DNA of 64,000 bases from Candidatus Poribacteria bacterium (GTDB taxonomy: Bacteria > Poribacteria > WGA-4E > PCPOR2b), in the NCBI GenBank assembly GCA_965116925.1, contig OZ220744.1, positions 4,256,001-4,320,000 of the forward strand, in the 5' to 3' direction. Made by a program: the position numbers and the translations under genes. The notes below the pieces were generated by a model. The model worked only from the letters and a program-made list of their open reading frames with translations, made no database searches and was not told where the DNA came from. Shown here one piece after another: positions 19,799 to 30,031 of the stretch (positions are counted from its first letter, which is position 1; every line of letters begins with the position of its first letter).

Positions 19799-20790
19799 GT
19801 CAAGTATTTGACCAAGTCGTTTTGTTCAAGGGAATTTCGGAATTGGGGACTTACATCATCCATCCAAGTAACATTTTCGTGCATCCATCCACCTAAATCA
19901 AAGCCAGAATATTCTAACACTTTCGGATAGGTTTCTGCTCCACAATAAACTTCCCAGAGGTCTGACCCCTTCAGTATTTGAAGGTAGTGGTTATTTTCAT
20001 CTTCAGGTGCTCTCACCAAGAGAAGACACCGATAATCTTCTGGCTCTATGTGTTGGTATATACTAGCAACCAGAAATAAACGGTTGGTGTTTCCTTTTTC
20101 ATTTGAGCCGAAACCGCTCTTACAATCGACTACATACCGCGTACCTTCAATTGAGAAATGCAGATCCAATTCAAGTTTAATTTCACCCGATGTGACAAGA
20201 TGCCAAACTTGGTCATAGTAGCGGAGAAGTTGTTCTTTATCTTCCCTGCTGATGTTTAACCCTTGAATAAAATCTCGAACCTCGTTGGTCAATCTTTTCC
20301 TGATTTCCTCAAATAAAGGAGGGATGAATAAGGTAACATCTTTTCGTATCGGGTAATCAAAGCAAGTTGTGACGAAAGGCTCCCAGAGTTCACCCATTCT
20401 GCGAGAAAAAGCCATGTAGTCATAGGACCATACGTCATTCCGGCTCTCAAGCATCACGACATTCGTACAGTGCATTAACAAAAGGTTGGCTCGGAGGATT
20501 GAATCCGTTTGCCAATCTTCTCGCCCGGCATTTTGCCGTATAACAGCAGCTAACTGCTGTTTTTCTTTCGCAAGTGCACGGTTAATTGCTGTCGCTCGTT
20601 GCCTAAATTGCCTTTCGCCAAACTCCTGCTTTATCTCGTTAAGATATTCGATGGCTCTGAACCTGAGATAGGAAAGCAATTCGGCTTTACGTGAGTTGAA
20701 ATCCTTGTCGACTGATATAGACATCTGCATTCGTTGTAGCAGTTTTGCGTAACGGTCACATTTTGTGCAATAGATGGCTATATTACACAA
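19792..20790 (-). CDS. Putative type II restriction endonuclease (PD-(D/E)xK)
   Basis: ELDLHF...VVDCKSG motif; stop overlaps the MTase start; true start probably near 20729. Confidence 0.65.
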   Translation of the reverse strand: MCNIAIYCTKCDRYAKLLQRMQMSISVDKDFNSRKAELLSYLRFRAIEYLNEIKQEFGERQFRQRATAINRALAKEKQQLAAVIRQNAGREDWQTDSILRANLLLMHCTNVVMLESRNDVWSYDYMAFSRRMGELWEPFVTTCFDYPIRKDVTLFIPPLFEEIRKRLTNEVRDFIQGLNISREDKEQLLRYYDQVWHLVTSGEIKLELDLHFSIEGTRYVVDCKSGFGSNEKGNTNRLFLVASIYQHIEPEDYRCLLLVRAPEDENNHYLQILKGSDLWEVYCGAETYPKVLEYSGFDLGGWMHENVTWMDDVSPQFRNSLEQNDLVKYLTW

Positions 20791-21580
20791 ACAGTGGTGT
20801 TCGCTTCGGAGGACCGAAACCGAGTTCCACCAACCTTGAGACTATTCGTCGGAGTCGAGGACGGTCACTGTTGACCAGCTCCTCTGGTGGATGTAGTGAA
20901 TAGTTCCAACCTTCATATAGTCCTTTGACGTAAGCGATTTCCTCATCTGTCACGGGGTTTGCCATGAAGTTGATGGCGTGTTGGGAGCGTCCCGGTGGAC
21001 CGCCGAACGCACCATGCCATAGTGTTTCTGGAAAGACTATGACATCGCCGGGTTGCGATTCGACGACAACGCTGGGCACATCCGCGCCTGCAACCCCAAA
21101 CGGCATCGCGGTCGGATTATCCTGCTGTGCACTCAACGGCTGTATCCGTTTCCTATATTCTAATTTATGAGATCCCGGAATGAAACGCAGTGCGCCTGTG
21201 TCTTTGATGTTTGGCTCAAGGTAGAATGCGATCTTGATGTGAGGCACCGGTTCTGGGTCAAGTCCCCCGCCGTGCCACTGGGTGTCGCCGACATGGAGGT
21301 TGCCCTCGGTAGCGTTCAAGATGAAGTCAGGTCCGAGGAGGTCTTCGCCTAGCGCGTAGATGCGGTCATCCTCAATGAGCCATTGGAGTCGGGGATTCAA
21401 CTCGAAGAACGGGATCATGGCTTGCCGCTTTTCTCCGGGGAACGGCTTGCCTTGACGGTTTTCTCGCAAAACCGCGTCAGACTCACGACGGATGATGTCA
21501 ATCTCATGCGGGGTAAATAGCTGTCGAAGGACAAGGAATCCAAACGTCTCAAAGTGCTGTTTCTGCTGAATCGTTAGCAT
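20783..21580 (-). CDS. PhyH-family Fe(II)/2-oxoglutarate enzyme with HxG motif
   Basis: FETFGFLVL, QWHGG, GALRFIPGSH, PGDVIVF...LWHG, distal R. Confidence 0.8.
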   Translation of the reverse strand: MLTIQQKQHFETFGFLVLRQLFTPHEIDIIRRESDAVLRENRQGKPFPGEKRQAMIPFFELNPRLQWLIEDDRIYALGEDLLGPDFILNATEGNLHVGDTQWHGGGLDPEPVPHIKIAFYLEPNIKDTGALRFIPGSHKLEYRKRIQPLSAQQDNPTAMPFGVAGADVPSVVVESQPGDVIVFPETLWHGAFGGPPGRSQHAINFMANPVTDEEIAYVKGLYEGWNYSLHPPEELVNSDRPRLRRIVSRLVELGFGPPKRTPLFV

Positions 21581-21597
21581 GTTTACCTCTTTCTCGA

Positions 21598-22218
21598 TTA
21601 AGAGTTATGGCTGCCGTTGAGCTGCTTTTCACATGCCGTAAAAATAAAGTCAAGGATTCCGAATACTTTGGCAGGATCGGTTATTGAGTATGCAAGCGGA
21701 TGTTTCGCGAAGATATTTGTCTGCAACTTGCCAAACTCCCAGATAATCCCTGTTGACACGATTCCATACACGGTAACCTGTTCATCCGCATTCAGCTTTT
21801 GGCACGCTATCAGTTCCGCCAAGCATTGTGCCCAACCTCCTTCAAAATCCTGTTTTTTTGCCTCTACCACTGCTAGCAGGGGACGATCCACCAGCTTATC
21901 GGTCACGCCATCAACCCACGCTGACACAAAGTAATCCGGTTCCCCATACAACTCGTTGTCAACATTCAGAGCGCGCTGGGACCACAATTTCAGGGTTTCA
22001 TGGCGCTTCCACGCCTGCTGCAAAAACGGAAAAATGAAACTTTCCCTTAAAAACGTTTCACTTTCTTGAATCGCCTGTCTGTCCAACAAGAAATCTAGAT
22101 TCTCAATAAACCAACTGGGAGGTTCAAGCCGCAGATCGGGTATAAATCGTTCTGGACGGATTTGTAGGGGATATGTTTGAATAACTTGTTCTACACTTTT
22201 GAAATCGCTGTATGCCAT
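21598..22218 (-). CDS. Conserved hypothetical PD-(D/E)xK-fold protein
   Basis: MAYSDFK, G.PDY, VVEAKK.DFE.GWAQC.AE, YGIVSTG..WEFG. Confidence 0.6.
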   Translation of the reverse strand: MAYSDFKSVEQVIQTYPLQIRPERFIPDLRLEPPSWFIENLDFLLDRQAIQESETFLRESFIFPFLQQAWKRHETLKLWSQRALNVDNELYGEPDYFVSAWVDGVTDKLVDRPLLAVVEAKKQDFEGGWAQCLAELIACQKLNADEQVTVYGIVSTGIIWEFGKLQTNIFAKHPLAYSITDPAKVFGILDFIFTACEKQLNGSHNS

Positions 22219-22250
22219 CTGAATATCCTGCGTTCTGACTATCATCGTTA

Positions 22251-22278
22251 GTAGGGAACGCAGATCTGCGTTCCCTAC
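22251..22278. repeat. 28-bp perfect palindrome (REP family C)
   Basis: gtagggaacgcagatctgcgttccctac; further copies at 24060, 32665, 35051, 40014. Confidence 0.9.
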
Positions 22279-22309
22279 TGAAATGCGTAAGTCCTAATCT
22301 GCCCATTCA

Positions 22310-24265
22310 TCACACAAAGTCCATCGGCATCGGCTTAAACTGGCACCCTTCGACAAATACTTCAAAGAAGTCAGCGGTTGTTTCCAATTCGACATGTTCA
22401 ATCCCTTTGACCAGACGCTCGATAGCCTCACGTTTCTTGCGTGAGAGGAGAACCTCCTTCGCCCCTTGTACCGCGGCATTGCCGATCTTGACGATGCGAT
22501 CTTCGTCCACCGGTGCCAAAAAACCGATCTCAATTGCATTACGAACATCCACATAGTTGGCAAAGCCACCCGCCAGATAGAGGCGACTCACGTCCGCCGG
22601 ATTGATCCCGAACTTTCGCATAACGATGAATTGACCGCAGTAATTGGCAGCCTTCGCTTGAGCTAGATTGCTAGCATCTTCGCGGGAGAAGGTGATGTCG
22701 TATTCTGGTACGATTGGTATCTCTCGCGTTTTTCTGTCCCCGAATACACCCATTTCAGTCATCCGGTCATGGCGACGGAGTTCTGCCAGTAGATCGATTA
22801 GACCGGAACCGCAAATCCCTTGGGGGGCAACGCCGCCGATTGTACTATATTCAACCTGACCGTCTTTCCATCGGATCGACTCGATCGCTTCGTCGTAGCC
22901 CGGCATCCCGTATTTAATGCCGCCGCCCTCAAAAGCGGGACCTGCTGGACAGGAAGCGGCAATCAGCCGCTCTGGGTGTCCGACCACCACTTCGGTGTTT
23001 GTGCCGACATCCACTAGCATGACGACCTCTTTCTGGGATGCGATGTCGAGTGCGACCAGATCCGCTGCAACGTCGGCACCGACATGGCTGCCGATCAATG
23101 GCAGTCCATACACCTGTGCCTTGGGGTTGGCTCGGATTCCGAGCCGCCGCGTCTTCTCAATGAGCGACGTGGTTTTGCGATCGCCGGCGTGATATTGATG
23201 TTCGATTATCGATTGGTAAGGCTTTTGACCGATGCTCTGCACATCTAGCTTAAAGAAGATGTCCCGCATCGTCGAGTTGCCGACCACGACAATCTCGTAA
23301 ATTTCTTGGCGGACAAACCCTAGTTGTTTCGCCATCTCCTGAATCTCGTGGTTGAGCGCGTTGATGACCGCCCAGCGTAACTCCCCGCCAAACTCTCCAT
23401 CATACGAAATGCGGTGCATGATGTCGCTGCCGCCGAATCGTTGTGGGTTCTCAAAGGAACTGACATGGACGCTTTCACCTGTCTCCAAATCGACCAAGTC
23501 GATGACTACTGTTGTGGTGCCGAGATCAATCGCCAAGCCGTAGATGTGACCGCGATATTTGTCAACTGCCTCATCATCATAGTAAACCATATTTTCGCGG
23601 CGCGTTACTAATGGGTCAATTTGGAGAGGTTTTTCGTGTGTGCGGGTAAGGATCTTGGGAGTACGCCGCACTGGCAGGAACTCAATATTGACATCGGCGT
23701 CCTTAACCATCGCTTGGCAGGCGAGCCGATAGTTCTCCCGCAAAAACGACTCGGCTTCGTTCCGTGGGCGCAACGCCTCCATCCCCTCTTTGATCTCTAC
23801 AATACATTCATGGCACTGTCCGGTGCGGTAGCAGGAGGTCGGCACCTGAACTGCGAGTTCATCGGCGTAATCAAAAATGGTCTTCCCGGCTGCGAGCGGA
23901 TGCTTTTTGCCGTCATGCGTTACTGTTCCTACCCCGTAGCTTACTTCGCTGTCGAGGAAAGCACCTTCGGCAGCTTCGGTTTCCCACGCAGTCCGATAGT
24001 CAATTTTATCGTCTCCACCACACAAAAGTAATTCCTCCTCTGGTGCCCCGCGAACGCTAGTAGGGAACGCAGATCTGCGTTCCCTACCCACCAAACCCTC
24101 GCTAGGCGGTTTTCGCTGGTTTCGGCACCCAAATTTAGCAGTACATTGATCGAAGCGGTTTTTGTACGGGCATCGATGCATAGATTGCACGTCGGCATGG
24201 GCAACCATGCTTGAGAACATCTCTGATATTTTATCTAAACGTTTTTGATACTCTTCTTTGCTCAT
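22310..24265 (-). CDS. Reductive activator of corrinoid proteins (RACo/RamA, ASKHA ATPase, 2Fe-2S domain) with extra N-terminal Cys domain
   Basis: SC..TGQCHEC...RLACQ ferredoxin motif, AIDLGTTT, NPQ.FG.D, HVGAD, DVGTNTE, AGPAFEG, GICGSG, LAGGF, GNAA..GA. Confidence 0.92.
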   Translation of the reverse strand: MSKEEYQKRLDKISEMFSSMVAHADVQSMHRCPYKNRFDQCTAKFGCRNQRKPPSEGLVGRERRSAFPTSVRGAPEEELLLCGGDDKIDYRTAWETEAAEGAFLDSEVSYGVGTVTHDGKKHPLAAGKTIFDYADELAVQVPTSCYRTGQCHECIVEIKEGMEALRPRNEAESFLRENYRLACQAMVKDADVNIEFLPVRRTPKILTRTHEKPLQIDPLVTRRENMVYYDDEAVDKYRGHIYGLAIDLGTTTVVIDLVDLETGESVHVSSFENPQRFGGSDIMHRISYDGEFGGELRWAVINALNHEIQEMAKQLGFVRQEIYEIVVVGNSTMRDIFFKLDVQSIGQKPYQSIIEHQYHAGDRKTTSLIEKTRRLGIRANPKAQVYGLPLIGSHVGADVAADLVALDIASQKEVVMLVDVGTNTEVVVGHPERLIAASCPAGPAFEGGGIKYGMPGYDEAIESIRWKDGQVEYSTIGGVAPQGICGSGLIDLLAELRRHDRMTEMGVFGDRKTREIPIVPEYDITFSREDASNLAQAKAANYCGQFIVMRKFGINPADVSRLYLAGGFANYVDVRNAIEIGFLAPVDEDRIVKIGNAAVQGAKEVLLSRKKREAIERLVKGIEHVELETTADFFEVFVEGCQFKPMPMDFV

Positions 24266-24337
24266 TGGTTTATTGGTGCATTAGTTCATGAAAACAATCC
24301 CAATGTTTTAACATTGGGTCAAACGGCGTAACTTTAG

Positions 24338-24366
24338 TTGATTTTGCGTATAAATGATGGTATACT
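24338..24366 (+). promoter_or_regulatory. Sigma70-type promoter inside the element
   Basis: TTGATT-17 nt-TATACT with TG in the extended -10 position. Confidence 0.6.
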
Positions 24367-24372
24367 TTTGAT

Positions 24373-24708
24373 ACGTCCAAAAGCGGGAGAATGTCACCCT
24401 TGCAGCCTTGCAAGGTCTCCCGCCTCTCCAGTGACATGGGGACTTTGGACGGGTGGCTAACCAAGCCATACTGGACGAAAACCAAGTCCAAAATTGTATA
24501 ACCGTCGCGGCGGGACACGCCGAGACGTAAAAATGCCTGTGGAGGGGCTGTAAGACCACGCTATTTTGCATGGCAAATCTCATCGAAGCAGGTATACGGC
24601 AGGGGTGCCCTTAGCGGGGCACACCCGTAAGTCCGTTAAAAACTCTCGAAGGAGATACAAAGTGATTACTAATAAGAATCCCAATGTTTCAACTTTGGGA
24701 GCGGTCAA
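24373..24708 (+). ncRNA. Putative structured RNA: 5' pseudoknot domain plus TnpB omega/reRNA-like scaffold
   Basis: Nested stems gtccaaa/tttggac, gcgggaga/tctcccgc, ccttgca/tgcaagg; tnpB 3'-end-like gcctgtggaggggctgtaagacc...gaagcagg. Confidence 0.6.
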
Positions 24709-24710
24709 TC

Positions 24711-25478
24711 CTACTCATCGTCCCAATCCTCGTCATCTTCTTCGAGGAATTTCTTTGCCAACGCCACGCATTCAAGGGCATCCTTGCCGTATCCGTCCGC
24801 CCCCATATCGTCGGCGAACTCTTGGGTCACCGGGGCACCGCCCACCATAATCTTAACATCTTCCCGGAGATCTTCATCAATAAAGGCTTCGATTGTTTTG
24901 CCCATATTCGGCATCGTTGTGGTGAGCAACGCTGACATTCCGAGCACGGGTGCCTCATGCTCTTCTACCGCTTCGATGAACTCATCGTCCGAAGTGTCCA
25001 CCCCCAAGTCGTGTACGACAAATCCTGCCCCCCGCAACATCATAATGCAGAGGTTCTTGCCGATGTCGTGGAGATCGCCCTTCACCGTTCCCATGATTAC
25101 AGTCCCGATGGGATCGATACCGGAGGCAGATAGAATCGGTTCAATATACGCCATCCCAGCCTTCATCGCTCGCGCACAGGCGAGGACTTCCGGGACGAAG
25201 ATAAAGTTCTCTCGAAACTTGATCCCAACAATCCCCATCCCTGCGATGAGTCCGTCATCCATGATTTCGAGTGCTTCGGTGCCTGACTCTAGGGCGGCTT
25301 TGGTCATCTCATCCACACCATCGTTGTCTCCGTCGATGAGTGCTGCGGCGATGTCTTGCATCTCAGGGGTGGTTTGGGCAAATGTGTTAATAGCGCGCTC
25401 CCGTTCATCGGGACGCTCAATAAACTCCTCAATTTCGTCTACGATAATTTCATTCTGAATGTCAGTAATTTCTGCCAT
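24711..25478 (-). CDS. Stand-alone corrinoid (cobalamin-binding) protein, MtaC/MetH-cap-like
   Basis: GM..VG.KF...FVPEVL cap, GTVKGDLHDIGKNL (DxHxxG), MSALLTTTM, VGGAP. Confidence 0.95.
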   Translation of the reverse strand: MAEITDIQNEIIVDEIEEFIERPDERERAINTFAQTTPEMQDIAAALIDGDNDGVDEMTKAALESGTEALEIMDDGLIAGMGIVGIKFRENFIFVPEVLACARAMKAGMAYIEPILSASGIDPIGTVIMGTVKGDLHDIGKNLCIMMLRGAGFVVHDLGVDTSDDEFIEAVEEHEAPVLGMSALLTTTMPNMGKTIEAFIDEDLREDVKIMVGGAPVTQEFADDMGADGYGKDALECVALAKKFLEEDDEDWDDE

Positions 25479-25529
25479 AGTTTTTTCTCTTTGGATTTTA
25501 AGTAAATTCTCGCAAAAGTTGATGTTTTG

Positions 25530-25940
25530 TTATTGGTATAAGCCTAATTCAATCAGACGTTGTCGCTCCGCAATACGTTTTTCATCGTTAAAACGCAGAA
25601 TTTTTACTGTTACTCGTGCTTCAGCAGTAAGAGCACGGATTACCCCTTTTTCTAACTCAAAATGCCTGTCCCAGTTTTGAGTGCGCGGATTAAAAAATGG
25701 AACGAGTGTTCCTGTCTGTGGGTCGAATGAGCCTACGTTTGGTCCTTTGTAGCGATTACAGTACATACAAGAAAGTGCAAGATTTCTCTCATCCGTATTT
25801 CCACCATGCTGACGGGGCACAATGTGATCTGGCTCGTGCTTGTGCAACGAAAACGACTGGGGTAAGAGACAATATTCGCAGCGATTGCCGGCACGCCTTA
25901 CGACGAATTGACGTACACTTGTAGATAGACCGGAAGGCAC
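25530..25940 (-). CDS. HNH endonuclease family protein
   Basis: RAGNRCEYC, DHIVPRQHGG, NLALSC..CN..KG, FFNPR..W..HF. Confidence 0.85.
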   Translation of the reverse strand: MPSGLSTSVRQFVVRRAGNRCEYCLLPQSFSLHKHEPDHIVPRQHGGNTDERNLALSCMYCNRYKGPNVGSFDPQTGTLVPFFNPRTQNWDRHFELEKGVIRALTAEARVTVKILRFNDEKRIAERQRLIELGLYQ

Positions 25941-26300
25941 TTAGGCTCCCTGTTTTAGCTGTGATGTAACTTGTGTCTTGAGCATGATGACAATATGCTC
26001 AATTTGTTGCAGTTCATCGAGTTCAAGTTGCTCCATCTCCGATAACAATCCCGCTTGATTTAGTGTGAGCAAGCGTTGAAGCCTCTCCTGCGCCCGTTCA
26101 GAAACGTGATAGTCAAGTACCTCCTGCGGGTCAGGGTTTTTTGATAAAAACTGAATTGTCTCGGATGCGGTAGCAGCGGCCAAGGTCTTGAATCCGATGA
26201 GACTCAACTCGATAACAGTTGGAAGCCAAGAGCCAATCGGCTGAATTCGTCTTGCCAATTCATCAGGAACCTGCATTGTTAGCTGAACCATATTCTTCAT
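25941..26300 (-). CDS. Hypothetical antitoxin-like partner of the HNH gene
   Basis: N-terminal LT..VPDELA (RHH-like), RLQ.LL..N..G.LS..E..ELDE; abuts the HNH start. Confidence 0.55.
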   Translation of the reverse strand: MKNMVQLTMQVPDELARRIQPIGSWLPTVIELSLIGFKTLAAATASETIQFLSKNPDPQEVLDYHVSERAQERLQRLLTLNQAGLLSEMEQLELDELQQIEHIVIMLKTQVTSQLKQGA

Positions 26301-26332
26301 CCTTACCAACACGGAATGTCTCTGTCCGGTCT

Positions 26333-27388
26333 TTAATTCAACTCCACATGTTCTTTGTGCCAATCCTGCACCGCTTTGGGAATTTCTTTGAGATTTTCAA
26401 TAGCGGTCTGCAGCGGAATCGCACACTCTGGACCGACAAGCTGCACACCGGACTCCAGATTCTTGTAGACTTCTCCCCTAACGTCTTCGGGCCCTTTTGA
26501 GAAAAGCGTCTCAGGATTGTTAATGTTTCCGACCAGAGAGATCCGTTCCTTCACGACTTCCATGGATTCACCGGGTTCGTTTTTGGAATCGTAGTGGAAG
26601 GCTGCCATTCCTGTTTGGGCGATATATTCCATTCTGTCCACCGTCCGCCCACAGATATGCAGAATCAGCGGAATGGGAATCCGATCGACAAACTCAGTGT
26701 GTAGATCGCGGAGGTAACGCTCATAGTATTCGCCACTGACCAGATCGCCCGTTGCGTGGTCGGGTAGGGTCAGTGCATCTGCTCCCGCTTCAATCTGTGC
26801 GACTCCAAACTCTATCGTGGCTTCCTTCAACTTATCAAGCGCGAGTTTCGTTTGGCCCGGATCGTCCAGAGATAGCAGCAAAAAAGGCTCCACGCCGAAA
26901 CAGTGATAGGCCTGAGACCAAGGTCCCATCGTCTTTCCAATAATAGCGACATCATCCCCGTATTCCTTCTTGAGAATCTTAATCGCGTCGAGCACGCATT
27001 TGGTATCCTGATGCGTCAAAAAGTCTGATGGGATCTTGATTTCATCGACATCCTCCCAGATCGGTTCACGCATTCTGACCGTGGGCCAATTATCCTTCTG
27101 CTCCCATTGGATCTTGCATCCGAGCGCAGAGGATTCTTGGATGATCGTGAAAACAGGCATAATCGTATCGAAACCTAACTCAGTATACCCGGTGGCGGCT
27201 AAACGTGCCATCAACTCAGGTTGACGGTTGGCTTCCGGGAATGGTGCGTCCACCAAGTCCATCAGTTCTACTGTGGCGACAGATGTTGGATTGCAGATTG
27301 GTGTTCGGTCCACAGGTTCTCTCTTCAACGCTGCCAAAACCCGTTCCTTACCGGTCATCGGTCCGACTGTTTGTTTTTGGGTTCCCAT
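26333..27388 (-). CDS. MtaA/CmuA-family methylcobamide methyltransferase (URO-D fold)
   Basis: MTGKERVLAAL...VDR.P, ESSALGC, GPWS, AGAD, Zn ligands LHICG and GPEC, VGNI. Confidence 0.88.
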   Translation of the reverse strand: MGTQKQTVGPMTGKERVLAALKREPVDRTPICNPTSVATVELMDLVDAPFPEANRQPELMARLAATGYTELGFDTIMPVFTIIQESSALGCKIQWEQKDNWPTVRMREPIWEDVDEIKIPSDFLTHQDTKCVLDAIKILKKEYGDDVAIIGKTMGPWSQAYHCFGVEPFLLLSLDDPGQTKLALDKLKEATIEFGVAQIEAGADALTLPDHATGDLVSGEYYERYLRDLHTEFVDRIPIPLILHICGRTVDRMEYIAQTGMAAFHYDSKNEPGESMEVVKERISLVGNINNPETLFSKGPEDVRGEVYKNLESGVQLVGPECAIPLQTAIENLKEIPKAVQDWHKEHVELN

Positions 27389-27397
27389 ATTTTCCTC

Positions 27398-28033
27398 CTA
27401 ATTCTGTTGGCTTGGGGCTGCGAGGACGCCACGCGATGCTGCCATCTCCTGTTCCCGCACGATGGCACGTACATTCGGGGCGCGAACCAGCAGCAAACCG
27501 AGCAGCGCGTCATGTGAGTGCCCACACGGAAACGCAACCGTATCGAGCGTTCCATCCACCTCTTCCATCTCTCCCAATTTCATTAAACCGCCAGCAATTG
27601 CGGAGATACGCCTCTCGGCGCGTCTGCCCTCGCCATCAGCCCGCACTTGGTAAATCCCTTCTCCAAGGCTATCAACCGTGATGGTAAGCCCCGATTTTTT
27701 GTCCAAGATCTGTAAGGGACGCGGTTCCACCGAATCGTTCGGAGAGAGCTTACAGGACTCCAGAAAAGTTCGCTTGCAGGCTAGCTGGTGTGCTGCCTCA
27801 CAGGGAAACTGGAGCAGTCCATTTGTATCCTCAACTAAATTTCCCATGTGCGTCATCGTATTAACCGCAAACTGGATGCGCCCCTGAGCCCCTTCCATCT
27901 GGCTGTAGGTATGCACTAAAAACAGGGGACTTTCATCCTGCCCCTGCTGGTATAGGGCGATTGTAATATCGTGGAAATGAGGGTCCATCGGGACCAATTC
28001 AATACGTTTTCCAATATCGACCGTTTGACCCAT
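27398..28033 (-). CDS. Conserved hypothetical protein, first gene of the methyltransferase cluster
   Basis: 211-aa ORF with GAGGAG RBS, 9 nt before the MtaA-like gene; two FPC motifs; no family recognised. Confidence 0.7.
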   Translation of the reverse strand: MGQTVDIGKRIELVPMDPHFHDITIALYQQGQDESPLFLVHTYSQMEGAQGRIQFAVNTMTHMGNLVEDTNGLLQFPCEAAHQLACKRTFLESCKLSPNDSVEPRPLQILDKKSGLTITVDSLGEGIYQVRADGEGRRAERRISAIAGGLMKLGEMEEVDGTLDTVAFPCGHSHDALLGLLLVRAPNVRAIVREQEMAASRGVLAAPSQQN

Positions 28034-28665
28034 GGTTGTCTCCTCGTTATCATTTTGGTTAGGTTAAATAAACGCAAAGACGCAAAGTCACAAAATGTCT
28101 TATCGACACGATTTGGCAATTTGGCAGGGCACTGGCAGGTCCAAAAAAAAATTTCAATCTCACATCGGGGGTTTATCATTAGCCGATGTCTCTCTGAACC
28201 CTGACGGGGCCTAGCTTCAGGGCGTTTGTAGATTTTTACCACGCAAGAGAAGAGGCACCCAGACGGCTTTTTGACCTGCCAAATACGCACTATTTATGGA
28301 TCGTTTTTCACTGAAATGCTACCATAACCGCGCCAAATGTCAGGGATTTGGCAGGGCACTGGCAGGTCAAAACTCTGAAATGCGTAAGTCCTGTAATTGT
28401 TTTCACATTTCATGCGCCTTGTGTTTTGCACTTTCTTTTTCGCTCATGTTAAGAAATCGTGCAACAGAAACCGAGTTTTCAAGAAAAAACTCGGTTTATC
28501 TTTCTGCTGTGCGCTTTCTTTTTAGATGAGCCGTAGCTTTTAGCTCTTAATTTTGCTTGACAACGGAACGTTTTATTCGCATAATAATTAATGGTCTGAC
28601 CTTTGTGGCATAAGTTTAACCCAAAATTGGGGAATTGTAAAGCAAAATTTTTATTAAGGATTTGA

Positions 28666-28935
28666 ATGCCTGAGATTTGTCGATTTTTCGGTATCATAAT
28701 ACGGATGTATGTGGAGCCTCGAGCTCCTCATCATCGCCCTCATTTTCATGCTTATTACCAAGAGAACGTTGGTGTATATGCCGTTGATACGATTGAATTA
28801 ATCGCTGGTCAATTACCCAGACGGCAGCACCGTTTGGTAGAGGCTTGGGCAGAGTTGCATCAGAGAGAATTGCTGGCAGATTGGGAACGATTACAATCGG
28901 GCCAAATGCCATTCAAAATCGATCCGCTTCGATAA
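28666..28935 (+). CDS. DUF4160 family protein (toxin-like)
   Basis: MPEICRFFGIII.MY...H..PHFHA.Y...LVEAWAELHQ.EL...W. Confidence 0.85.
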   Translation: MPEICRFFGIIIRMYVEPRAPHHRPHFHAYYQENVGVYAVDTIELIAGQLPRRQHRLVEAWAELHQRELLADWERLQSGQMPFKIDPLR

Positions 28936-28946
28936 AGGAGGGCGGC

Positions 28947-29249
28947 ATGAGTCATCCAATATATCGCGTCGTTTTTTTTGAAATACAGGCACCTTACACA
29001 CTTCGAGTCTGTTTTGATGACAATACGGAACAGATTATAGACTTCCAAGACACATTAGAAGGAGAATTGTTCGGGCCACTTCGCGATGGTTCCTTGTTCA
29101 ATCAGGTTCAGATTGATCCAGAAGTCCATACGTTGGTATGGCCGAATGGGGCTGATTTTGATCCAGCGACCTTACATGATTGGCATGAGCATTTGCCGGA
29201 ACTTAAGAGAATGGCGAAGTGCTGGTCTCTTGCAAAAACGGCAGGATAA
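28947..29249 (+). CDS. DUF2442 family protein (partner of DUF4160)
   Basis: YTL...FDD...GELF.PL...FNQV......TLVWPNGADFDP; AAGGAGG RBS. Confidence 0.85.
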   Translation: MSHPIYRVVFFEIQAPYTLRVCFDDNTEQIIDFQDTLEGELFGPLRDGSLFNQVQIDPEVHTLVWPNGADFDPATLHDWHEHLPELKRMAKCWSLAKTAG

Positions 29250-29263
29250 CATATTAACTACCA

Positions 29264-30031
29264 ATGCCATTGCAGCGTTTTTCACTATCGTATGTTATGA
29301 AAATGCAAGAACAGGAAAAATTAGCGGTGAAAGAAATGAAGCCCGATACCCGCACCTCTGTGAGTGATGGGATTGTAGAGCAGATGGTTGACCTTATTTC
29401 CCGGGACGTGCTGAAACCCGGGGACCGGTTGCCTTCTGAGCGGGAATTGTGTAAGCGGTTGGGGGTGGGGCGGAGTTCTTTGAGAGAGGCGTTGCGTTCC
29501 CTTGCCGTCATGGGGATTATAGACGGACGGGTTGGAGATGGCACCTTTGTTTCTAACAGCAATAAGCGGTATCTGGAGAAAACGTTACAGTGGGGGTTGC
29601 TGCTTGACCGTAAAAGGGTTCAAGACCTTATCGAAACTAGGCTTATGTTAGAATCTCAGACAGCGTTTCTGGCTGCACAGCGCGTCACACCTGAGAATAT
29701 TGAGGCGATCGAGGAGACCTTGCGGGGGATGGAAGCGTCGATCGGACAGCCTGAGAAATACTTGGAGTTCGATTTACAGTTTCACCTGACCATCGCACGC
29801 GCAACACAAAATTCGATACTCTACAGCCTTCTGAGCATGATACGGGGTTATCTGCAAGAGTGGATTAAGGGAAGTCTCGCTGAGCCGTCAACAGGTGAGG
29901 AGACGCGGGCAGAATTGTCGTTACTGGAACACCGGAAAATCCTTGATGCCCTGAGAAAGGGAGAGGCGGATCAGGCGCAGCAGGCGATGACGGAACACAT
30001 TCTCTCCAGTAGCGTAGATCTTCAGAGGTGA
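29264..30031 (+). CDS. GntR/FadR-family transcriptional regulator
   Basis: PGDRLPSERELC..LGVGRSSLREAL, FCD domain FH..IA.A..N; start may be 29303 or 29336. Confidence 0.92.
   Translation: MPLQRFSLSYVMKMQEQEKLAVKEMKPDTRTSVSDGIVEQMVDLISRDVLKPGDRLPSERELCKRLGVGRSSLREALRSLAVMGIIDGRVGDGTFVSNSNKRYLEKTLQWGLLLDRKRVQDLIETRLMLESQTAFLAAQRVTPENIEAIEETLRGMEASIGQPEKYLEFDLQFHLTIARATQNSILYSLLSMIRGYLQEWIKGSLAEPSTGEETRAELSLLEHRKILDALRKGEADQAQQAMTEHILSSSVDLQR

Follow-up and report, generated by a model that had tools for sequence, protein, structure and literature searches.

The window (that is, the whole 64,000-nucleotide stretch of contig OZ220744.1 from a Candidatus Poribacteria genome) carries on its minus strand, at 22310–27388, a corrinoid methyltransferase cluster that includes a RACo activator, a B12-binding protein and a protein that we take to be MtaA/CmuA-like. 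The cluster is interrupted by an HNH-like/antitoxin-like gene pair (25530–26363) and by a non-coding IS200/IS605 mini-element of approximately 420 nucleotides. This element sits between the RACo-type activator gene and the corrinoid-protein gene (Pfam B12-binding), both on the opposite strand, and its transcript is antisense to the cluster; in order, it consists of a left end, a promoter, a structured RNA domain at its head, two hairpins, a tnpB C-terminal remnant (the last nine codons) with the predicted omegaRNA, and a right end (Table 1). The coding frame of the RACo-type gene also holds a perfect 28-nucleotide REP-like palindrome (24060–24087) that adds an ERRSAFPT-like peptide, and a second such peptide lies nearer the N terminus.

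Table 1. Features of the mini-element and its RNA domain (window positions)
Feature	Position	Strand	Basis or remark
Left tip of element	about 24282-24298	+	Looks shortened; small deletion shared with host flank
Left-end subterminal hairpin, IS200/IS605	24299..24318	+	Identical hairpin starts 7 elements in own genome
Sigma70-type promoter, extended -10 (TG + TATACT 24361-24366)	24338..24366	+	9/12 consensus match, a quality expected by chance at about 1 site in the scan
Predicted transcription start	about 24372-24374	+	Placed from promoter position
P1 closing stem	24374-24381 / 24444-24451	+	Read from sequence and RNAfold
Strand X (P1 5′ strand), two alternative partners	24374..24381	+	Fold, two-site covariation, register energies
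P2	24383-24390 / 24416-24423	+	Fold, covariation; carries kissing bulge and optional P3 (24383..24423)
Kissing bulge UGUCAC	24392-24397	+	Unpaired in nested fold; between P2 and P3
P3 inner hairpin	24398-24404 / 24409-24415	+	Optional; missing from one subtype
P4 hairpin	24425-24430 / 24437-24442	+	Loop kisses P2 bulge
P4 loop GUGACA	24431-24436	+	Exact complement of UGUCAC 24392-24397
Proximal partner of X	24444..24451	+	Closes three-way junction; 8 Watson–Crick pairs, -55.7 kcal/mol
P5 hairpin, specific to mini-element family	24453..24469	+	AACCA-type loop; 2/5 pairs change on both sides; 83.5% paired
P6 hairpin, conserved loop GAAAACCAA	24472..24490	+	Stem invariant in 17 mini-element copies
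P6 5′ arm, distal partner of X	24472-24477	+	Matches RBS region of full tnpB leaders
tnpB last-codon remnant (TVAAGHAET-stop)	24500..24530	+	Full tnpB copies end alike; fused to decayed start region
Predicted TnpB omegaRNA scaffold	24500..24708	+	Resembles 3′ ends of full tnpB elements
Right-end hairpin	24680-24699	+	Element terminus about 24707/24708
Predicted guide (host flank)	24708..24727	+	Putatively antisense to 3′ end of corrinoid-protein gene

All five relatives compared have an empty site at the locus of the element, with TGA directly upstream in three of the five, and the guide sequence follows the TGA-type motif in the empty alleles. The end features are PATE-like (that is, left and right subterminal hairpins, a short target motif and no long terminal inverted repeats); mini-elements have a TGA-type motif before their left ends and a right end at GGTCA/TCAA, and the left tip and target motif of the window copy itself look eroded. 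Copies are dispersed, with four mini-elements in the same genome and matches of at least 180 nucleotides to a 271-nucleotide mini-element query in 8 of 20 genomes of the genus. Full-length TnpB ORFs that finish with the C-terminal motif of the remnant occur in this genome as well, which matches the TnpB C-terminal domain at 26 places and Y1 transposase at 5, the latter perhaps not all IS-associated. The omegaRNA identity of 24500–24708 is predicted from the IS605 layout given in passages of Meers et al. (2023, 10.1101/2023.03.14.532601), and we infer from these sequence features that the host element is a PATE-like non-autonomous omegaRNA carrier, the guide of which is predicted to be used in trans. 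A short GATCCCGATTTATCGGG-type repeat is inserted at one and the same omegaRNA spot in L114, L150, L159 and the 3′ ends of the own-genome tnpB genes at 400.8 and 4474.2 kb, marking this spot as a tolerant loop. Contigs from sponge metatranscriptomes cover related copies; as these contigs run on into promoter DNA and the libraries contain contigs of 12–49 kb, they demonstrate neither expression nor the start site.

Fold of the RNA domain

The region 24360–24510 has a minimum free energy of −57.9 kcal/mol (RNAfold; z = −4.67), with 0 of 200 dinucleotide shuffles being equally stable, and RNAfold of the window copy returns P1–P4 and both downstream hairpins (24453–24469 and 24472–24490). An earlier sequence-only reading of this DNA had described these stems, the two small hairpins and the UGUCAC:GUGACA kiss, and all of them are recovered at their positions. 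Its loop–loop pseudoknot holds as regards exact complementarity and covariation, but the 5′ strand belongs to an internal bulge that separates P2 from P3 rather than to a terminal loop. In the diverged mini-elements L032 and L173, the P6 stem changes jointly with X. The mini-element hairpins P5 and P6 (24453–24490) form a tandem with sequence-conserved A(A/U)CCA-type loops, a possible repeated protein-binding site (that is, a sponge-like RNA).

A search of window positions 20000–30000 against Rfam 15 gave two weak matches, neither at its gathering threshold, and the one that overlaps the domain is SAM-VI (20.7 bits versus a threshold of 57.5); in 20 loci with homologous copies (P3-less leaders, described below, are not among them), all eight matches were likewise weak and below threshold. 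Given this, strong covariation that includes the pseudoknot, and the lack of a description in the literature considered, the undescribed RNA motif proposed in the earlier reading is supported: the domain is a real, uncatalogued RNA motif.

The short frame that follows fared differently. GTG at 24453 opens 25 codons that end in the tnpB C-terminal remnant, but in a 95%-identical copy in the same genome (G000:5588951) the frame meets a stop after six codons, and in another (G000:2585589) the GTG is missing. As it is unconserved among sister copies, the mini-ORF was dropped as a regulated gene and is better read as a chance product of the deletion that joined the leader to the end of tnpB; the original start was an AUG, which is kept in mini-element L092 and decayed in other copies.

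Covariation and distribution of the motif

A covariance model of 11 leaders from which the window copy was left out (R1) recognizes that copy at 29.6 bits (E 3.8e-6), and the same fold precedes tnpB genes of several subfamilies. A shorter subtype without P3 exists, in which, as P3 is missing, two terminal loops kiss; conversely, the 5′ kissing strand of the window form is an internal bulge because P3 is inserted. A second model (R2) also recognizes P3-less leaders, giving them up to 24.5 bits on the sense strand.

Among 52 distinct sequences, 22 of the 24 pairs in the nested helices change on both sides, and 96.6% of cells are paired compared with 42–55% in slid controls, in an alignment fitted to the model. 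For the kiss, which was tested independently of the model (2 of 53 rows were dropped as truncated or decayed), 35 of 41 distinct bulge/loop pairs have at least five Watson–Crick pairs in their own pairing, compared with 3.8% of mismatched combinations, and 0 of 20,000 permutations reach the observed mean, although such permutation counts, here and below, overstate significance because the rows are related. The pairing proposed in the sequence-only reading therefore covaries, and the number of different kiss words is large. The P3-less form gives 18/23 versus 9.5% of mismatched combinations (0/20,000 permutations). In 17 ORF-less mini-elements (from 26 extracted; aligned by MAFFT without a model), 17 of 41 pairs change on both sides with 94% paired, and the kiss is 99% paired with changes at two of its six pairs; 'further pair types' in this alignment showed no excess over shuffles (197/500). 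The frequent G–U pairs fit a single-stranded sense molecule. The junction is mostly ACAC, ACAT, ACAG or GCAC in the 52 rows and ACAC in 9 of 12 P3-less rows; among unpaired positions, the second base of the P3 loop alone reaches 98%, and P3 is optional.

Across the phylum, R2 matches 84 of 121 Poribacteria genomes, in families f1, f2 and f3, and none of 11 genomes of families f4–f8, most of those checked being also without tnpB. R3, a model of 12 P3-less leaders, has matches in 42 of 141 genomes, and these all belong to family f2. In the genome of the window, R2 finds 39 copies: 26 before tnpB starts (some truncated), 4 in mini-elements and 9 others. None of the nine has a start codon shortly after the motif by a start scan, and four lie directly behind TGGCAC..TGC sites, which are sigma54-like. 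The motif ends approximately 14 nucleotides before the ATG in 52 of 64 Poribacteria tnpB loci (66 of 69 loci were searched, three 5′-truncated ones being left out). Of the 69 genome loci related to one own-genome TnpB, 67 are titled Ca. Poribacteria. Eleven of the other 12 tnpB loci are deletion or truncation derivatives in which the −10 box is lost too, and the remaining one has the shorter form.

Outside the phylum, neither R2 nor R3 matched any of 151 Chloroflexota genomes (strict filters, with only top candidates scored), two genomes queried singly gave none, blastn against plasmids and phages returned no motif match, viral scans with three TnpBs and one pattern found nothing, and a metagenome pattern scan gave five matches, none of which was scored by R2. 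With one other phylum sampled (Chloroflexota), restriction to Poribacteria is not established. Two looser searches were abandoned: a P6-hairpin pattern allowing two mismatches gave counts near those of the reversed control in most of 31 genomes (26 loci inspected comprised 8 mini-elements and otherwise chance matches, several in an atpD-like gene), and a loose descriptor scan of the own genome gave too many chance matches.

Natural variants lack all or part of the leader. Leaderless tnpB elements occur at L264 (G130:C123) and, in the own genome, at G000:C1:5977551 and 1037390-; as L264 keeps a promoter-like box without the motif, the motif is not obligatory. Promoter and leader were lost together in L180, L181, L183, L188–L191, L198, L232 and L241, several of these losses being deletions between short AATG repeats, and the sequence before the tnpB ATG in such copies resembles the foot of the left-end hairpin. 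Smaller deletions (L238:1420-1488, L356 and L233) have left one variant without the kissing bulge, one without one repeat and a third without the P2 3′ strand and P4 5′ arm. The plasmid TnpBs closest to L258, a TnpB with a P3-less leader, are 41–44% identical to it and are often annotated beside IS607 transposases or recombinases. The sequence relationships suggest that IS605-type ends of Poribacteria, together with the leader, took in TnpBs of other clades, and the leader may have been exchanged as a module between TnpB clades.

Two partners for the 5′ strand

In most of the 94 leaders listed, X starts 5–6 nucleotides after the best −10 box (the script chose the wrong box in a minority), so X is probably the 5′ end of the RNA. 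X is complementary to two downstream sites: once 9 of the 94 leaders were dropped (no motif, an internal deletion, or a miscalled −10 box or start), 72 of 85 had a second site with at least five Watson–Crick pairs, and by distinct X core the rule holds in 23 of 30 compared with 22.5% of mismatched combinations (0/20,000 permutations). It spans unrelated X sequences, spacers of 1 to about 12 nucleotides between the partners, and TnpBs with only 20–30% identity to the first sequence of the alignment; the tandem distal partner could have arisen partly by slippage duplication. In most listed tnpB leaders the distal site lies at about −15 to −4 (Shine–Dalgarno) or −4 to +4 (AUG), and X thus has mutually exclusive pairings over the ribosome-binding site (RBS), an arrangement of the riboswitch type.

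Constrained folding gives a median difference of 0.55 kcal/mol between registers and a difference of at most 2 kcal/mol in 29 of 62 leaders; in the window copy, the proximal register is predicted to be better by about 7 kcal/mol, as the distal site is held in hairpin P6. A pseudoknot-free nearest-neighbour model detected no effect of removing X on mean RBS accessibility (0.58 versus 0.58), with native accessibility lower than X-less in only 39 of 85 leaders. The earlier proposal of a translational control leader of tnpB can be kept for the motif family, where the position of the motif just before the start and the covariation of X with the Shine–Dalgarno/AUG site point to such a role, but not for the window copy, which has no tnpB ORF, an unconserved GTG mini-ORF and a favoured proximal register.

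Copies elsewhere vary this arrangement. GIY-YIG genes follow the motif at two bacterial loci and at four of seven viral loci, the four being the full-length relatives among the seven. These GIY-YIG leaders (L386–L389; L145:1501-1612; L147) have a phage or prophage-like setting, the neighbouring gene presumably encoding a prohead-protease-like protein. Their distal site lies approximately 25 nucleotides upstream of the AUG, off the Shine–Dalgarno sequence, and their tandem X partners lie upstream of a weak hairpin that masks the Shine–Dalgarno sequence; they perhaps control a ribosome standby site. Host copies at G000:C1:322173, 338633, 3117439- and 3232609-, together with L070 and L136–L141, lie behind TGGCAC-N5-TGC sigma54-like promoters; they contain two or three repeats rich in purines, and no start codon stands next to them. 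The L070/L136–L141 type, including its kiss, hardly varies between several genera. These copies may be independent small RNAs or long leaders.

Explanations and known systems

With moderate confidence, we favour a model in which the leader is a switch with two registers at the 5′ terminus, which adjusts translation and protects the 5′ end. The domain would be the 5′-terminal module of a Poribacteria expression cassette (that is, IS end, promoter and structured leader), with the RNA starting 5–6 nucleotides after the −10 box such that X is the transcript 5′ end. P2 (with P3 where present) and P4 would fold and then kiss, and X would first close a compact three-way junction with the proximal site during transcription, leaving the 5′ end buried and the RBS free; alternatively, X would slip to the distal repeat, which overlaps the Shine–Dalgarno sequence or AUG in tnpB leaders, and thereby close the RBS. 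As the registers are close in energy, the leader may act as a poised or kinetic switch that limits translation of the nuclease. Translation of the toxic nuclease would then be brief or low, and the RNA would be left for omegaRNA maturation. A shape-recognising protein that binds the compact fold perhaps tips the balance between registers, and the freely varying sequence argues against a small ligand. In the mini-element of the window the ORF is gone, yet compensatory changes have preserved the domain, which is predicted to favour the proximal register; there it is most likely a 5′ cap, which would protect, or bind a protein to, an omegaRNA used in trans by the TnpB of full copies. Results that speak against the switch are the unchanged RBS accessibility in the folding model, the position of the distal site in GIY-YIG leaders, and the nine own-genome copies with no start codon behind them.

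Much of this could also be served by a static stability cap, in which the sole task of the fold is to hide the 5′ end from decay of the RppH/RNase E/J type and so prolong the life of the mRNA or omegaRNA precursor, the second repeat being left over from slippage or acting as a minor reserve. Such a cap would explain why the motif stands at the predicted start whether the promoter is sigma70-like or sigma54-like, why ORF-less mini-elements retain it and why no net effect on the RBS was modelled; we nevertheless consider it unlikely, given that two X partners persist across unrelated X sequences, with the distal one usually on the Shine–Dalgarno sequence or AUG in tnpB leaders, and that a plain hairpin would suffice without a covarying kiss. 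In another reading, the P1/P2/P4 junction with its kiss would mimic the SRP Alu 5′ domain, bind the ribosomal factor site and slow or position ribosomes, and mini-elements would, by analogy, capture nascent TnpB in trans, much as Alu SINEs capture L1 protein. The SRP RNA of Poribacteria is indeed of the large kind that includes an Alu domain (RF01854 matches in 59 of 61 genomes), and the domain is retained in guide-only elements that have no ORF. However, R1 and R2 give no match on the own-genome SRP RNA, R3 run on 27 SRP loci with filters off gives 19 weak matches (E 1.8–9.6) of which none falls on the SRP gene, the junction is mostly RCAC with no UGU, helix 5 and a minor-saddle partner are missing, and the kiss varies freely whereas it is nearly invariant among the SRP genes listed, all of which makes Alu-like docking quite improbable.

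A small-molecule or ion riboswitch, with the kissing junction as aptamer and the register slip as expression platform, would account for mutually exclusive pairings over the RBS, near-isoenergetic registers and the strong conservation, in several genera, of a chromosomal copy downstream of a sigma54-like promoter. We regard it as very unlikely: one optional P3-loop base is the only near-invariant unpaired nucleotide, the downstream genes have no common metabolic theme, no Rfam riboswitch matched, and the distal site is off the Shine–Dalgarno sequence in GIY-YIG leaders, with no start after 9 of the 39 own-genome copies. Highly improbable, in our estimate, is protection against read-through, whereby promoter sequence in incoming transcripts would pair with the start region and block translation. 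Upstream 9-mers do pair slightly better with the RBS region than permuted ones (4.05 versus 3.69; 66/20,000), and CC stands before the start in 45 of 67 leaders compared with 142 of 1,306 background ORFs, but the native upstream 30 nucleotides perform no better than shuffled or swapped ones (accessibility 0.41 versus 0.43 versus 0.41; 37/67) and the kiss is left unexplained. The least credible possibility is a self-cleaving or capping ribozyme that processes the transcript 5′ end: despite a compact pseudoknotted fold before the selfish nucleases TnpB and GIY-YIG, there is no Rfam ribozyme match and no invariant catalytic-looking core, and cleavage would gain little as the domain is already at the predicted start.

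Beyond the two-register switch, a broader and decidedly doubtful picture would be a portable, lineage-wide RNA device that serves several TnpB clades, phage GIY-YIG genes and sigma54-driven host transcripts, the Alu-like fold being read by the ribosome or by a single host or TnpB protein that flips the X register, with guide-only mini-elements capturing TnpB in trans as bacterial counterparts of SINEs. In any event, the motif family is real and uncatalogued and has a testable switch architecture, the functional steps of which we infer. It adds an uncatalogued compact kissing-loop fold with a proposed slip-strand expression platform, which a major sponge symbiont has at transposon, phage and host loci alike.

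Among known RNAs, the ZTP (pfl) riboswitch combines an internal-loop-to-hairpin-loop pseudoknot, and the purine riboswitch a kissing-loop three-way junction, with an RBS expression platform; unlike these aptamers, which have invariant ligand-binding nucleotides, the motif has no invariant ligand-type nucleotides and no Rfam match. No description of the motif was found in the literature considered (supplements, including those on bioRxiv and that of Weinberg et al. 2017 with its 224 motifs, and subscription journals were outside the scope): the main text of Weinberg et al. (PMC5737381) mentions neither Poribacteria nor IS605, and the portions considered of a TnpB survey in PNAS (PMC10691335) contain no such leader. 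A functional parallel would be the IS200 tnpA 5′ UTR of Salmonella and E. coli, in which, according to the sections used of Ellis et al. (2015, PMC4513863), the Shine–Dalgarno sequence is sequestered. Both are structured 5′ leaders in elements of the IS200/IS605 superfamily that limit, or would limit, a transposon protein, but the IS200 leader is a long static stem–loop that controls tnpA together with the antisense RNA art200 and Hfq, whereas the motif is a kissing-loop three-way junction of approximately 60–80 nucleotides with two registers that stands before tnpB, GIY-YIG and host loci. PATEs, which often encode omegaRNAs acted on in trans according to passages of Meers et al. (2023, 10.1101/2023.03.14.532601), resemble the mini-element in being ORF-less and in having left- and right-end hairpins and an omegaRNA for use in trans; those passages describe no structured 5′ leader, whereas the mini-element keeps a covarying leader and two extra hairpins.

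The SRP Alu 5′ domain, as set out in parts of Kempf et al. (2014, PMC4231752), is a three-way junction of helices 2, 3 and 4 with a loop–loop pseudoknot of approximately five pairs, UGU between helices 3 and 4, a helix 5 minor-saddle motif and helix 1. The P3-less subtype shares its topology (that is, a closing helix and two kissing helices) and has a similar size, but the motif differs in the optional inserted P3, the cis position at the mRNA 5′ end and the freely varying kiss, and its P1 closes directly on P2 and P4 with the RBS or small hairpins downstream and no helix 5. As the UGU junction and helix 5 are missing, and testing the motif models against SRP loci gave no covariance-model match on an SRP gene, we have not filed the motif as an Alu domain; were the Alu-like reading true, mobile elements would use a ribosome-docking fold in bacteria.

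Little is known of what keeps tnpB expression in check or of how a single transcript serves both as mRNA and as omegaRNA, and we found one control mechanism in the literature, namely the DNA-binding repressor Arc, which represses IS605 tnpB promoters in the portions used of a 2026 preprint (Moon et al., 10.64898/2026.09.24.754181), a text in which the words 'UTR' and 'leader' do not occur. As a concrete RNA element that can be mutated, and that comes in two structural subtypes with natural compensatory variants in the hundreds, the motif makes the question of tnpB restraint directly testable by reporters and probing. Both Arc and the motif would form layers that restrain tnpB expression in IS605 elements; Arc, as that preprint has it, is a protein that acts on DNA at transcription, whereas the motif is an RNA that we propose acts after initiation.
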